Of a stretch of 64,000 nt of DNA, positions 25,101 to 31,100 are shown piece by piece. Each line of letters begins with the position of its first letter. The stretch's first letter is position 1. Position numbers: made by a program. Source of the stretch: an uncultured Acidobacteriota bacterium (GTDB taxonomy: Bacteria; Acidobacteriota; Vicinamibacteria; Fen-336); the NCBI GenBank assembly GCA_963720545.1, contig OY970399.1, forward strand, positions 224,001-288,000. Direction: 5' to 3'.

Positions 25101-28100
25101 CCGAGCTCGAGCACCTCACGGCGCTGAATGCCCTCTATCGCCCCGGCCCGATGCAGATGATCGACGACTTCATCAAGCGCCGCCACGGCCAGACGAAGGT
25201 GGTGTTCGAGCACCCGCTGCTGGAGCCGATCCTCAAGGGGACCTACGGCGTCATGGTGTACCAGGAGCAGGTCATGCAAATCGCCTCGGCGCTCGCCGGC
25301 TTCACGCTCGGCGAGGCCGACATCCTGCGCAAGGCGATGGGCAAGAAGAACGCCCAGGTGATGGGCAAGCAGATGGACAAGTTCCTCTCCGGCTGCGCGT
25401 CGCGCGGGGTCAACGAGAAGAAGGCGCGCAGGATCTGGGACCAGATGGAGCAGTTCGCGGGCTACGGCTTCAACAAATCGCACTCGGCGGCCTATGCGTG
25501 GCTCGCGTACCAGACGGCCTACTTCAAGAGCAACCATCCGGCGTGCTTCATGGCGGCACTGCTCACCTCCGAGCGCGCCAACACCGACCGCATGGTGCTC
25601 TACATCGGCGAGTGCCGCGAGATGAAGCTCGACGTGCTGCCGCCGGACGTCAACGAGTCCGACCTGTTCTTCAGCGTGGTGGGCGGGGACACGGGCCAGA
25701 TCCGCTTCGGCATGTCGGCGATCAAGAACGTCGGCGAGGGAGCTGTGGAGGCGGTGCTGCGGGCGCGCGCCGCTGGCCCCTTCACCTCGCTCACCGACTT
25801 GTGCGAGCGCATCGACCTGCGCGCCGTCAACCGGCGCGTCATCGAGAGCTTCATCAAGAGCGGCTGCCTCGACTCGCTCGACAAGCGCCGGGCAAGCTTG
25901 TACGCCGCGATCGACCGGGCGCTCGAAGCGGGGCAGCGCCGCCAGCGCGACCACGAGCAGGGCCAGCACAGCCTGTTCGGCATGCTCGCGGAAGATCACG
26001 CCGAAAAGGGCGCGCCCGCCGAGCGGCTGCCGATCGTTCCCGACTGGGGCGAGGGCGACCGGCTCGCTTTCGAGAAGGAATCGCTCGGCTTCTTCATCAC
26101 CGGCCATCCGCTGATGCGCCACCGCGATGAGCTGAGCCGCTGGGCCAACGCCACCTGCGCGCGGCTCGCGGCGCTCACCGAACCGGCGGAAGTGACGATC
26201 GGCGGGCTCATCACCTCGCTGCGCCTCATCAAGACGCGGCGCGGCGACCGCATGGCCACGTTCGTCCTCGAAGACCTGGACGGCAGCGTCGAGGTGCTGA
26301 TCTTTCCCGAGACCTACAAGAAGGTGGGCGCGCGCCTCGCCGAGGACGAGATCGTCATGGTGAAGGGCAAGGCGGAGCCGGTGGACGACGGCAAGACCCG
26401 CCTCCTGTGCTCAGAGCTGCAGCTGCTCGAGGACGCCAAGCGCACCGATGCGCGCCACGTGCGTGTCGAGGTGCGCGCCTGGGACAAGGACAAGGCGCAA
26501 AGGCTGCGCGATATACTGGAATCGCACCGCGGCGACTGCCCCGTGACGCTGGGACTGCGGGCGGGAGGCTACGACGTGGTGGTGCACACCATGCCCGGCT
26601 TGAGCGTGCGCCCGGATCGGGCCTTCAGCGAGGAAATCGGCGCGCTGTTCGGTCCCGAGGCCCTGGTCCTCGCGCGGACCACGGAGATTTCTTGAGCGAT
26701 TTCGAGGCGCCGCTTCACGAACTGCAGAAGAGGATCGCCGAGCTGGCGGCGTTTCCCGGCGACCCGGCCAGGGAAAAGGAGGCCGCGGCCCTGAGCGCCG
26801 AGCTCCTCGCCCTGCGGCGCGAGGTGTTCGCCGGCCTGACGCCGTGGCAGAAGACCCTCGTGGCCCGGAACCCCAACCGGCCCTACACGCTCGACTTCGT
26901 CCAGGCGCTGTTCACCGATTTCACCGAGCTGCACGGCGATCGCCGTTTCGGCGACGACGAGGCGCTCGTTTGCGGCTTCGCGCGCTTCGACGGGCGGCCG
27001 GTCGCGGTGCTCGGCCACCAGAAGGGGCGCGACACCAAGCAGAAGATCCGGCGCAACTTCGGCATGCCCAAGCCCGAGGGCTACCGCAAGGCGCTGCGGG
27101 TGATGCAGCTCGCCGCCAAGTTCAAGCGCCCGATCATCGCCTTCGTCGACACGCCGGGTGCCTATCCCGGCATCGACGCCGAAGAGCGCGGCCAGGCGGA
27201 GGCGATCGCCTACAACCTGCGCGAGATGGCGCGCCTGGCGGTGCCCATCATCGTCACCGTCACCGGCGAGGGCGGCAGCGGTGGCGCCCTCGCCATCGCC
27301 GTCGGCGACCGCGTCAACATGTTCGAGCACTCCGTCTACTCGGTGATTTCACCCGAAGGCTGCGCGTCCATCCTGTGGCGCGACGCGGGCCGCGCCGAGG
27401 AAGCGGCAACCGCGATGCGCATCACCGCCTCCGACCTGAAGGCTCTCGGGGTGGTGGACGAGATCGTGCCCGAGCCCGCCGGCGGCGCACATGTCGACCA
27501 CGACGAGATGTTCGACACGCTCGGCAAGCTGCTGCGCACGCAGCTCAAGGCGCTCACCACGGCTTCGCCAGCCGAGCTGCTCGACGATCGTTACGCGAAG
27601 TTCCGCGCCATGGGACGGCTCGGGCAGGAATTCGCGCGCCTGACGCCGCCCGCTTGACCGCATGAAGCGGTCCACCCTCTGGGCCGTCCGGCTGCTGATG
27701 GTCGCGATCGTCGCCGCGGTGGCGGTGATGGTGCGGCACAGCTTCAAGGCCAGGAGCGTCGCCCAGCCGTCGCCGACTCCGCAGGCCGCGGCGAGCGCCG
27801 CCCCGACTCCGCCGCCCGGCGGCACCGGCATGTGGCTGAGCGGCTTCAACTACGAGCGGTTCGACGACAACGGCCGCGCCACCAAGATCCGCGCCGCCCT
27901 CTACCGCGACGGCGAGAAGGACGAGATCCTGTTGCGCCAGGTGGAGGTGGACTTCGCGTACGTGGCGCAGGGGAAGCCGGGCACCACCCACATCAACTCC
28001 GACGAAGCCGTGATGATCCCGAAGATCAACAAGGGCGACTTCAAGGGCCACGTGGTGCTGACCACGGAGGAACCGGTACCGACGCGCGACGGCGAGACGC

Positions 28101-31100
28101 AGAAGGGCTTCGAGGTGCGTACCGAACAGCTCATCTATCGCGGCGACAAGGGCGTGGCGCGCAGCGAAGCGCCGGTGACCTTTCGCCGCAAGGACGTCTC
28201 GGGCAGTTCGCGCGGCCTCGTCTACAACGCCGAGAAAGGCACCATCGAGTTTCCGGCGGACGCCTACATCCGCATCGACGACGAGAAGGTCGGGGCCACC
28301 GAGATCCGCAGCCAGAAAGCATTCGTGAACCGTGCCAACGGTGTGATGAAGTTCGAGGATTCGGTGCGCCTCGTGCACGGCGCCGAGACGCTCAACTGCA
28401 AGAACCTGCTGGTGGGCTACGCCGAGGACACTCTCGCCATCAACCGCCTGCAGGCGGTGGACAACGTGGTGATGAGGATCTCCGGCAACACGGTGCTGCC
28501 CGGCACCAGCACGCCGCTCATGGGCAAGGGTTCGCGCATCATCACCGCCGACCGGCTGTTTGCCCTGTTCCGGCCCGACCGCACCTTGCAGGAGGTCACG
28601 GCCCTCGACAACGCGAAGCTGACTCTGACGCCGCCGCCGGGCGATGCGGGCGACGCGATGGAGCTGGGCGGCGGCACGCTCGGGTTCACCTTCGATGCCA
28701 AGGGCCAGCTGACCGAGCTGCAGTCGACCAAGGGCGCGTCCTTCGCGAGCCGCAGCACCGCGAAACCGCCGACCGGCACGCCGTTGCGCATCGACAGCCA
28801 GCGGCTGACGGTGCGCGTCGATCCGCCCACCGGGCAGATGAAAATGATGCTGTTCGAGCGCGACGTGAAGCTGGCGCGCGGCACGCAGGCGGCCACCAGC
28901 GGCCGCGCCCGCTACGAACTCGCCGAGGGCACGCTGGAACTCCTCGACACGCCGAAGATGAGCGATTCCGGCGAGGGTTCGGAGCTGGCCGGCAACGCGC
29001 TGGTGCTCGAGACGCGCACCCAGAACCTCAAGGCGCGCAACAACGTGCGCCAGTCGACGTCGCCGAAGAAGGATGCCGGTGGACCGTTCGGCTCGGCCAC
29101 CGCCAGGACCGTGATCACCGCGTCGACATTCGAATACGACGGCGCGAAAAAGCTGGCGAACTATCGCGGCGGCGTCCTGCTCCGTTCGGGAAGCGACGAG
29201 ATTCGTGCGCGCGAGGTGTCGATCGAGGACCAGGGCGAGAACGCCCGTCTGCTGAAGGCCGCCGGCCAGGTTGCGGCGACCATGGGCACGAAGGGCGGCG
29301 GCCCGGGCGGCAAGGACTCGGAAGATTCGAGCGTTGCGAGCCGCTCCGAGACGCTCGACTACGACGAGGCGAAGCACAGCCTGGCCTACAGCGGCGACGT
29401 GACCTTGCTGATGGGGGAGCTGCGGACCCGATCCCCCAACGCCCATGTGGACCTCGACGAGGCCGGGACCTCGGTGCGCGAGCTGCGGGCCTGGGAACCG
29501 GTGGACGCCACCCAGGAAAAACGGCTCGTGAAGGGCCAGAAACTCGTGTACACGCCCGCACAGAAGAGCGTTACGGTTACTGGTAAGCTCGTTTCTTTCA
29601 AGGATTTAGAGCGAGAAATGCAGGGCAAGGTGCTGACTTTCTTCATGGGGGACGACAACCGCATCATCGTGGACGGGCGGGAACTTGGCCGCACCGAAAC
29701 GGTGATCCGCCCGAAGGAGTCTCCAAAGCCGTCCCCCTCACCCACTCCGGCCGCCCATTGAGCGAAACAGCTCCGTCCCCGCCGGCGAGGCTGGCGCCCC
29801 CCGGGGTGAAGGTGCTGGAGGCGCGTCAGCTCACCAAGTCCTATGGCCGCCGGGTGGTGGTGCGCAGCGTCGACCTGCACGTGCGCACCGGCGAGGTGGT
29901 CGGCCTGCTCGGCCCCAATGGTGCTGGCAAGACCACGACCTTCTACATGTGCGTCGGGCTCACCCGGCCCGACAGCGGCCAGGTGTTCCTCGGCACGGAG
30001 GACATCACGGCGCTGCCGATGTACATGCGGGCGCGTTACGGCATCGGCTACCTGCCGCAGGAAGCGAGCATCTTCCGCGGCCTGACGACCGAACAGAACG
30101 TGCTTGCGGTGCTCGAGACCCGCGGCCTCGACCACGCCGCGCAGCGCCGCCGCTGCGGCCAGCTGCTCGAGGAACTGGGCATTGCCGCCCATGCCCGCCA
30201 GGCGTCCTACACGCTTTCGGGAGGCGAGCGCCGCCGCCTCGAGATCGCCCGCGCGCTGGCTGCCGACCCGTCCTTCATCCTGCTCGACGAGCCGTTCGCC
30301 GGCATCGACCCGCTGGCGCTCGAGGACCTGCAGGACATCATCGCGCACCTCAAGGACCGCGGCATCGGCGTGCTGATCACCGACCACAACGTCCGCGAGA
30401 CCCTCAAGATCACCGACCGCGCCTACATCCTGCGCGAAGGCGAACGCTTTCGCGCCGGCACCCCGAAGGAACTGGCGAGCGACGAGGAAGTGCGCCGCGT
30501 CTACCTCGGCGAAGGCTTCAAGCTCCACTAGAATTTCACAGCAACCGTGGCGATGAACCAGAAACTCGGCCTGCAGGCGCGGATGTCGCAGCGCCTCGTC
30601 CTGACGCCGTCGCTGCAGCAGGCGATCAAGCTGCTGCCGCTGACGACGCTGGAGCTCGCCGACGTCCTCGAGCAGGAGGTGATGGAGAACCCGCTGCTCG
30701 AGGAGGCGCCGCCGGAGGCGCCCGGCCCCGACGAGGCGACCGCCGAGGACGCGCCCGCCGAGGAGCGCAAGGACTCGCTCGACGAGATCGACGTCGACAA
30801 GTTCTTCGAGGACTACATCGAGGACAGCTACGAGAGCCGGCCGATGCCGTCGTCCGACATCCCCGAGGCGCCGCCCATCGAGAACACGCTGGTCGAGTCG
30901 CCCGACCTCTACGACCACCTGTTGTGGCAGCTGCGCATGACCGCCGCCGACGAACTGATCCAGGAAATCGGCGTGTGCATCATCGAGAACCTCGACGAGG
31001 ACGGCCTGCTGCGCGCTACCGACGAGGAGATCGCGAACCTCGGCCCGTACCCGCCCGCGGACGTCGCGCGAGCGCTCGCCCTGGTGCAGTCGCTCGACCC

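Follow-up and report, generated by a model that had tools for sequence, protein, structure and literature searches.

In an uncultured Acidobacteriota bacterium, we found LptC and LptA-type units joined in one 699-aa protein. This LptC-LptA chain is genuine and represents a naturally occurring variant of a system already known, and we consider it probable that it serves as a single-chain bridge protein, anchored in the inner membrane, that carries LPS to LptD. The initial annotation had read the gene as an LptC continued by LptA-type units, and on this point Pfam, NCBIfam and structure matches agree.

The gene occupies positions 27662..29761 (plus strand) of the window, the 64,000-nucleotide stretch of DNA analyzed here; the reading frame begins with ATG and is open in translation table 11. 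As assigned by Pfam and sequence, the locus order is accA-[LptC-LptA gene]-lptB-rpoN-hpf-rapZ. According to the junction sequence, only 4 nt separate the accA stop codon from the ATG of the LptC-LptA gene. The start of lptB is either TTG 29758, which overlaps the fusion gene by 4 nt, or GTG 29806, so the spacing is 0–45 nt. In E. coli, lptC and lptA precede lptB-rpoN-hpf, which we take to be the slot filled here by the fusion gene. The features of the locus and of the encoded protein are as follows.

26695..27657, plus strand: accA (acetyl-CoA carboxylase carboxyltransferase alpha); Pfam ACCA 8.3e-141; start approximate
27668..27748, plus strand: N-terminal membrane helix, LptC-type anchor, aa 3–29; AlphaFold2 helix
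27749..27829, plus strand: Pro/Ala-rich disordered linker, aa 30–56; pLDDT <50 for 27–54, sequence
27830..28276, plus strand: LptC-type jellyroll, aa 57–205; PF06835 at 57–197, TIGR04409 at 56–198, VIA
28277..28696, plus strand: first LptA-type unit, aa 206–345; PF03968 at aa 214–294 (hmm 1–77), VIA; boundaries approximate because the sheet is continuous
28697..29071, plus strand: second, shorter LptA-type unit, aa 346–470; PF03968 at aa 376–454 (hmm 30–112), VIA
29072..29671, plus strand: C-terminal LptA/LptD-N-type unit, aa 471–670; PF03968 at 485–539 and 562–661, TIGR03002 at 558–685, VIA
29672..29761, plus strand: Pro-rich disordered tail, aa 671–699, and stop codon; pLDDT <50 for 677–699, sequence
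29758..30531, plus strand: lptB (ABC ATPase); Pfam ABC_tran 2e-32
30547..31971, plus strand: rpoN (sigma-54); Pfam Sigma54_DBD, Sigma54_CBD, Sigma54_AID
31986..32318, plus strand: hpf (ribosome hibernation / sigma-54 modulation protein); Pfam Ribosomal_S30AE 7.5e-17
32197..33198, plus strand: rapZ; Pfam RapZ-like_N, PapZ_C; longest ORF, true start probably further downstream

Both families are detected in the 699-aa protein above their cut-offs. Pfam places LptC (PF06835) at aa 57–197 (52.5 bits, cut-off 21; 5.9e-14) and finds LptD_N (PF03968) with 95.4 bits (cut-off 20.4; 3.3e-27) over four stretches, of which 562–661 is the best. Among NCBIfam models, LptC TIGR04409 scores 60 bits (cut-off 38) and LptA TIGR03002 scores 84.7 bits (cut-off 71.7) over the whole protein, single stretches all falling below the cut-off (best 33.6 bits). 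The C-terminal unit, aa 471–670, corresponds to about 1.5 Pfam LptD_N lengths and is presumably the docking end for LptD. No Pfam match to the AsmA or TamB family was obtained. The region of aa 200–485 had initially been described as lacking any Pfam hit, but this does not stand: scanned alone, aa 200–482 gives LptD_N at 37.7 bits in two stretches, aa 214–294 and 376–454. Moreover, profile self-comparison aligns aa 187–667 with 117–603 (probability 97.4%, E 1e-11), and thus a single repeated motif runs along the whole length.

The predicted structure agrees with this picture. In the full AlphaFold2 model (17 rows; pLDDT 82.9, pTM 0.70), a helix at 3–29 is followed by 44 strands between 59 and 670, later helix being confined to short turns. 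Inside the chain, neither a hydrophobic segment nor another signal peptide is present. Foldseek returned LptD chains (9ia0_A, 2.7e-8, prob 1.00) and LptA 2r1a_C (TMt 0.81, rmsd 2.0), reproducing the LptD and LptA matches reported earlier. With VIA, the LptC region matched 9doq_C (Z 10.2, rmsd 3.1, 133 aligned, 54..197) and 3my2 (Z 9.8, 73..213). Against full LptC chains that include the helix, 6mjp_C was matched over model 2..198 with Z 11.7, but with an rmsd of 23; the helix at aa 3–29 would be an uncleaved anchor. The C-terminal region, aa 465–675, matched LptD N-domains (Z 15.1, 465..668, 169 aligned, rmsd 3.3) and LptA 2r1a_C (Z 13.6, rmsd 2.0, 129 aligned, 472..620).

Folded alone, the middle part gave a model with pLDDT 85.5 and pTM 0.81. 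Its best matches among 48,161 chains were LptD N-domains (Z 13.9 and 13.7), aligned to aa 210–422. It also matched LptC 6mit_C on aa 309–482 (Z 12.9), LptH 4uu4_A on aa 288–437 (Z 12.3, rmsd 2.1), LptA 2r19_A (Z 10.9) and the LptA chains 8onu (Z 9.0, aa 206–360) and 7qs6 (Z 8.9, aa 209–344). The matches to 2r1a_C, 4uu4_A and 2r19_A identify the V-shaped 16-strand jellyroll of 2R1A/2R19. MORN-type single-layer sheet proteins match the middle model as well (Z ~11), and a closed V-shaped groove in this part is a prediction from the model together with weak Pfam matches.

How long might such a rod be? In the VIA alignment, LptA residues 30–166 (137 aa) correspond to 149 aa of the fusion protein, so that its 612 aa of jellyroll amount to approximately 4.1 LptA lengths. 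The jellyroll up to about aa 670 would accordingly hold LptC plus about three LptA-type units, about four LptA lengths in all. Taking ~35 Å for each of 4.1 LptA equivalents, we estimate a rod length of ~145 Å.

We then considered conservation. Within Vicinamibacteria, we searched 41 related genomes of the family and order, and 40 have a full-length match, which bears out the earlier view that the gene is no assembly artefact. In all 11 fetched loci, a single ORF of 663–686 aa encodes a protein with a membrane helix, and lptB comes next. The chain is also found in long frames across Acidobacteriota, its length varying from about 600 to 890 aa. Therefore, the "fixed length" ascribed to the bridge in the initial annotation is right within a lineage and wrong across the phylum. 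Automatic annotation already labels such proteins "LptC/LptA", as had been anticipated, and a natural LptC-LptA fusion was not described in any paper that our literature searches returned; the design is phylum-wide and little discussed in print.

This conservation also bears on the possibility that the exported chain is processed: cleavage of a precursor would release at least one free LptA-like piece and leave LptC anchored, and the bridge would then be assembled from subunits as in E. coli. The one signal in that direction comes from lower-confidence loops between units, at aa 467–482 (pLDDT ~71) and 546–554 (<50). However, the sheet is confidently modelled as continuous where LptC passes into the following unit (aa 190–230, 10-residue blocks at 84–93), the one-chain architecture is retained in nearly all of the relatives and across the phylum, and no hydrophobic segment or further signal peptide lies within the chain. 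Moreover, the available text of PMC12065857 describes an engineered covalent LptC-LptA that functions in vitro. We therefore regard processing as very unlikely, and the bridge chain as one that probably stays uncleaved.

The fusion protein is the sole LptA/LptC homologue detected in the genome. The source organism is a soil bacterium with a genome of 4.09 Mb. In six-frame whole-genome searches with PF03968, PF06835 and TIGR03002, all LptC/LptA-type matches lay within the fusion frame, except for a weak one in the 843-aa LptD frame. Neither a free LptA nor a free LptC was found in this genome with Pfam, NCBIfam and five lineage profiles in six frames, and unit profiles run against 28,342 stop-to-stop ORFs gave nothing else better than E 0.044. 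The same searches corroborate the earlier statement that there is no separate lptA: no free soluble LptA with its own signal peptide is present among the matches, the LptA-type units being located in the LptC chain. Marker genes put the completeness of the genome at 94.8%, and a small gene may be missing.

The rest of the pathway is largely recognizable. Both LptF_LptG matches fall in one 819-aa frame (C1:345724-348039), and in the 790-aa protein PF03739 matches at 14–373 and ~432–785, both full length (504 bits in total), in agreement with the earlier report of LptF and LptG in a single chain. The order is F then G: the N half is LptF-like (TIGR04407 246.5 bits, cut-off 230, vs 146.6), and the C half is LptG-like (TIGR04408 208 vs 129 bits; alone below the cut-off of 240), TIGR04408 reaching 343.7 bits on the whole protein. 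Of 101 genomes searched in the phylum, 99 carry this LptFG fusion. In the available text of PMC8871954, lptF and lptG are reported as apparently lacking in Acidobacteria; our result corrects that inference, since the genes are present, as a fusion, in all but two of the genomes searched. Neither fusion is peculiar to this genome, and the caution that the LptFG fusion is a trait of the phylum extends to both.

LptD (839 aa) matches LptD_2 (PF19838, 61.3 bits) and LptD (PF04453, 32.9 bits), with LptD_N at aa 112–189 scoring 18.5 bits, just below 20.4; judged by sequence, it would form a barrel in the outer membrane and carry an OstA-type domain at its N-terminus. LptE belongs to a poorly conserved family, and the genome search with PF04390 gave a sole match, located in a frame of 608 aa, with 15.1 bits and E 0.08. 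LptE was thus not found, and the pathway is therefore incompletely accounted for at its outer-membrane end.

The cargo is most plausibly LPS. The available text of bioRxiv 10.1101/2022.12.21.521298 proposes that Lpt homologues move surface lipoproteins in Borrelia, and such transport has been proposed in E. coli and Bacteroides too. By analogy, the chain might carry surface lipoproteins or another glycolipid, or act mainly as a structural tether between the membranes. Against this, the genome contains lipid A and Kdo genes (LpxC, 337.7 bits; Kdo transferase domain, 205.4 bits) and one Lpt set only, so LPS, if exported, must use this system. A different cargo or a tether is, in our judgment, highly improbable.

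For LPS transport through the bridge chain, we propose the following mechanism. The membrane helix would anchor the chain in the inner membrane beside the LptB2-LptFG transporter, whose permease in this phylum is one LptF-LptG chain. The rest would form one continuous V-shaped β-jellyroll of LptC plus about three LptA units, and its hydrophobic groove would let LPS, once extracted by the transporter, slide to the N-terminal jellyroll of LptD at the outer membrane. Covalent continuity would take the place of the edge-to-edge contacts between separate LptC and LptA subunits of E. coli, and the number of bridge modules would therefore be written in the gene.

We next asked whether the C-terminal part is predicted to bind LptD. 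For aa 470–680 and the LptD N-domain, complex prediction gave a score of 0.56 versus 0.24 for the best control; at least 70% of contacts recurred between runs, and the partner had a pLDDT of 79 or higher. Among 157 solved complexes 116 reach the mark, as do 2 of 215 mismatched pairs, but passes with a score of at most 0.60 comprise only 18 of those 157 complexes and both mismatched pairs. Moreover, solved structures or good models exist for LptA–LptD-type contacts, and the predictor may have passed this pair by having memorized them. For this textbook-like pair, the prediction thus weakly suggests that the C-terminal part docks on the LptD N-domain.

The chain might be a partial bridge, with a further diverged OstA-type protein, or a head-to-tail pair of chains, needed to reach LptD. 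This option gains from the weak docking prediction, from the incompleteness of the genome and from the fast divergence of LptA-type sequences, cross-unit domain scores within the chain being at most 8 bits. On the other hand, none of the profile searches yielded a candidate, and with ~4.1 LptA equivalents the chain is in keeping with a three-LptA model for E. coli (bioRxiv 10.1101/2023.04.28.538765). As given in the available text of that study, the model has a centre-to-centre membrane distance of 260 Å, near the ~270 Å derived for AcrABZ-TolC. We therefore consider a partial bridge unlikely and infer that the single chain alone would reach LptD.

A stronger version of this reading is that the Acidobacteriota LPS bridge is a hard-wired ruler, in which the number of modules equals the whole LptFG–LptD span, no further subunit takes part, and length tracks or even sets the inter-membrane distance. 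The chain studied here holds about 4 LptA equivalents, and those of other lineages in the phylum hold ~3.6 to 5.6. We offer the ruler tentatively, as possible but not the outcome we would favor. If it is true, natural chains directly give the module count of a working Lpt bridge and, being stoichiometrically defined, would be suitable objects for solving the structure of an entire bridge.

Even short of that, the family is informative. Judging from the available text of bioRxiv 10.1101/2023.04.28.538765 and PMC6164715, the number of LptA per working bridge and its adaptation to periplasm width are unsettled. A natural family with LptC and all LptA units in one chain fixes the unit number in the gene, and its lineage-specific lengths offer a comparative handle against envelope dimensions. 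Together with the single-chain LptFG, the inner-membrane and periplasmic machine would be reduced to three gene products (LptB, LptFG and LptCA), an appealing target for cryo-EM and for reconstitution.

The closest known counterpart is E. coli LptC plus LptA. Shared features are both families above cut-offs, the OstA-type jellyroll (Z 10–15), the N-terminal membrane helix and a gene directly before lptB-rpoN-hpf. However, E. coli has a bitopic inner-membrane LptC and a soluble periplasmic LptA encoded by two genes, whereas here there is one polypeptide, and in place of an LptA oligomer of unsettled number (same two sources) there are about three units in cis. Unlike E. coli LptA, the LptA part of the fusion lacks a separate signal peptide; from sequence and model, it would work like LptA, though it is not a stand-alone LptA. 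The engineered E. coli protein likewise has LptC and LptA covalently joined, but according to the available text (PMC12065857) it is man-made, used for in vitro reconstitution and apparently contains one LptA, whereas the chain here is natural, conserved in the phylum and has about three LptA-type units. Compared with the separate LptF and LptG of LptB2FG, each half of the 790-aa chain belongs to the same family, but the two are fused. TamB, YhdP and other AsmA-like proteins are also single membrane-anchored polypeptides with a long β-sheet groove across the periplasm, and in this respect resemble the LptC-LptA chain. TamB is discussed in the available text of bioRxiv 10.1101/2023.04.28.538765. 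These proteins nevertheless belong to another fold family, and their gene order is without the ABC-transporter coupling seen here.

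The fused LptC-LptA chain is a real and conserved feature. It is encoded by a 699-aa open frame beginning with ATG, in a region of even composition (G+C 67-70%). Positions are given for the window unless they refer to C1, the single contig of the whole genome; L007 and L008 are loci outside the window.

Upstream of the accA and LptC-LptA region: dnaE
27662-29761, plus strand: LptC-LptA chain, 699 aa
29758 (TTG) or 29806 (GTG): possible starts of lptB, 3' of the LptC-LptA gene, the first overlapping its stop by 4 nt and the second lying 44 nt downstream
After lptB: rpoN
31986-32318: hpf, after rpoN
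32197-33198: rapZ (longest ORF), after hpf
C1:345685-348057 (L008:1462-3834), outside the window: LptF-LptG single chain, 790 aa, F preceding G
C1:2746657-2749173 (L007:70-2589), outside the window: LptD, 839 aa
C1:3027907-3028149, minus strand, outside the window: weak PF04390 (LptE) signal inside a 608-aa frame

Only 4 nt separate the accA stop from the ATG of the LptC-LptA gene (27655-27664). The tight spacing on both sides of the gene suggests translational coupling within an accA-lptCA-lptB-rpoN operon. Further downstream, the longest rapZ ORF and the 3' end of hpf share about 120 nt; since the Pfam match of rapZ begins only at residue 53, its start probably lies downstream of that of the longest ORF.

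Both families are recognized in the chain by two profile collections. Pfam assigns LptC to aa 57-197 with 52.5 bits (cut-off 21) and the LptA family, LptD_N, to four stretches with 95.4 bits (cut-off 20.4), while NCBIfam reports LptA TIGR03002 at 84.7 bits (cut-off 71.7) and LptC TIGR04409 at 60 bits (cut-off 38). In the six-frame search, LptD_N stretches fell at aa 108-217 (weak), 214-294, 376-454, 485-539 and 562-661. The initial annotation had described aa 200-485 as devoid of Pfam matches, but this does not hold: scanned alone, aa 200-482 scored 37.7 bits, and its two halves 21.6 and 20.0 bits. Moreover, when the profile of 17 orthologues was compared with itself, aa 187-667 aligned with 117-603 (probability 97.4%, E 1e-11) at an offset of about 70 residues. 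Therefore, a single repeated motif runs throughout the whole periplasmic part. Pro-rich stretches are present at aa 30-56 and 677-699.

An AlphaFold2 model of the whole chain, based on the 17-row alignment of orthologues (pLDDT 82.9, pTM 0.70), has a helix at aa 3-29, disorder at 27-54, 44 strands between 59 and 670, and a disordered tail at 677-699. The Foldseek matches reported previously were reproduced: LptD chains came back with probability 1.00, and LptA 2r1a_C with TMt 0.81 and rmsd 2.0. Repeats of teneurin, Rhs and LRP clutter the same list, their rmsd values being meaningless. VIA-align placed LptC onto aa 54-213 (9doq_C, Z 10.2; 3my2, Z 9.8), LptA onto aa 472-620 (Z 13.6, rmsd 2.0), and LptD N-terminal domains onto aa 465-675 (Z 15.1, 169 aligned, rmsd 3.3). 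For the middle part, this alignment gave no match other than OspA-type sheets (Z about 8). This was clarified by folding aa 200-482 alone from 12 rows (pLDDT 85.5, pTM 0.81) and searching 48,161 representative chains without Foldseek. The highest-scoring matches to this middle model are proteins of the Lpt pathway:

7omm_A, LptD N-domain: Z 13.9
5iv9_A, LptD N-domain: Z 13.7
6mit_C, LptC: Z 12.9
4uu4_A, LptH: Z 12.3, rmsd 2.1, 128 aligned
2r19_A, LptA: Z 10.9

As a caveat, MORN-type single-layer sheets match the middle model too (Z about 11). Chains of LptA size were placed on it at aa 206-360, 287-437 and 309-482, and therefore the middle is a continuous jellyroll of about two LptA lengths.

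The size of the rod can be estimated from the VIA-align match to LptA. As 137 aa of LptA (residues 30-166) align with 149 aa of the chain, its 612 jellyroll residues amount to roughly 4.1 LptA lengths, or LptC together with approximately three LptA-type units. A modelling preprint attributes about 35 Å to each added LptA and gives centre-to-centre membrane distances of 185, 220, 260, 290 and 325 Å for one to five LptA (bioRxiv 10.1101/2023.04.28.538765). On that scale, we estimate the rod to be about 145 Å long, corresponding to the three-LptA model. Two sources note that experiments have yet to establish the number of LptA molecules (bioRxiv 10.1101/2023.04.28.538765; PMC6164715).

Six-frame searches of the genome (one contig, 4.09 Mb, 94.8% complete by markers) with PF03968, PF06835 and TIGR03002 returned only the LptC-LptA frame and, weakly, the LptD frame. 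Five further profiles, covering the four units singly and the LptD N-domain, were applied to 28,342 stop-to-stop ORFs with every filter disabled. Apart from their own frames, they matched only across the fusion and LptD frames, and the best match elsewhere had E 0.044. Pfam, NCBIfam and the five lineage profiles give no sign of a separate lptA or lptC in this genome. Short matches of 197-311 aa from the exhaustive profile search described below, which might pass for free LptA genes, are read as truncated gene calls: the 17 inspected either start in mid-strand (with V or L) and have no signal peptide, or are N-terminal fragments. As for a free LptA produced from an internal translation start, the chain contains no internal signal-like hydrophobic segment, from which we infer that this does not occur.

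The architecture is widespread among relatives. Within the same family and order, 40 of 41 genomes (this one counted), including all 23 of high quality, have a match, in most cases near the whole query and in a few partial; the one exception, G022, is 84% complete. Each of the 11 fetched loci contains a single ORF of 663-686 aa that carries a hydrophobic helix at its N-terminus and has lptB as the next gene. Many relatives show a TGA inside the match; in these 11 loci it proved to be the stop codon of the gene itself rather than a sign of a split gene or recoding. A search with a narrower alignment retrieved 16 loci, all from MAGs titled Vicinamibacteria, Acidobacteriota or Acidobacteria, and a related-loci search with the single protein as query retrieved no relative. 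A word-based homologue search yielded just 6 proteins, whereas an exhaustive profile search yielded far more (7693 at E <=0.001, 978 at <=1e-30). Among 150 listed proteins, 47 spanning 657-854 aa were scanned; every one has an N-terminal LptC, and LptD_N ends 20-30 aa before the C-terminus. The best LptD_N stretch, mostly the C-terminal one, starts between about aa 497 and 728, and therefore chain length varies in the middle.

Across the phylum, at least 155 of 301 genomes match the 17-row profile, a floor owing to a stricter first look. Most matches lie in open frames spanning about 600-1100 aa, and the LptC and LptA ends frequently share a frame. From families lacking a match, five genomes were searched separately: in three, LptD_N stretches lie in frames of 642, 753 and 1064 aa, the last also holding LptC, and the LptC/LptD_N search of the other two found nothing. 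Open-frame sizes, which set an upper limit on gene length, vary little inside a genus but differ from one genus to another (about 866-895 aa in lineage g106, 793-816 in g112 and 604-633 in f42), pointing to lineage-specific module numbers.

The remainder of the pathway is largely in place. LpxC (337.7 bits) and a Kdo transferase domain (205.4 bits) are encoded in the genome. That LptF and LptG share one chain was confirmed: the N half is LptF-like (246.5 vs 146.6 bits) and the C half LptG-like (208 vs 129 bits). Of 101 genomes of the phylum, 99 carry this fusion, and each listed pair sits in one frame of about 730-1076 aa. Both phylum tallies (155/301 and 99/101) include the unpublished genomes G088 and G063, on which no other claim rests. 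LptD begins with a signal peptide, after which come about 75 aa of Pro/Ser-rich low-complexity sequence, an OstA-type jellyroll N-domain and the barrel. A genome search for LptE (PF04390) gave no convincing match, its sole signal reaching 15.1 bits (E 0.08).

We also predicted the complex of aa 470-680 with the LptD N-domain, using a separate alignment for each. The score was 0.56 against 0.24 for the best control, in a range (<=0.60) where only 18 of 157 solved complexes, together with both mismatches, pass a mark reached overall by 116 of those 157 and by 2 of 215 mismatched pairs. Between runs, at least 70% of contacts agree, and partner pLDDT is at least 79. The prediction thus hints that this segment may dock on LptD, and the pass may reflect likeness only, because the pair resembles known LptA-LptD contacts.

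In the literature searched, which did not cover the 2015 review by Putker et al., said to survey Lpt genes across phyla, neither a natural LptC-LptA fusion nor a natural LptF-LptG fusion is described; the single fusion that turned up is an engineered one (PMC12065857). A survey of LptC anchoring across phyla does not have Acidobacteria among the phyla it lists (PMC9544173). In another source, Acidobacteria are said to lack lptF and lptG, apparently (PMC8871954); the LptFG count speaks against this, and the reported lack is probably due to the fusion. JGI automatic annotation names such proteins 'LptC/lipopolysaccharide transport protein LptA', and ESM Atlas clusters that combine both families (674-801 aa) come most often from Acidobacteriota.

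Taken together, the data are best read as a natural single-chain bridge of LptC and about three LptA units, which would work together with single-chain LptFG. Such a bridge would show how nature has fixed the number of modules and would be an easier target for structural work; the chain may reach LptD unaided, remain uncleaved and serve as a ruler. As the initial annotation had cautioned for the LptFG fusion, this is a trait of the phylum rather than of this genome. It is a variant of the known Lpt system, not a new kind, and its gene occupies the slot ahead of lptB-rpoN-hpf that in E. coli is held by lptC and lptA.
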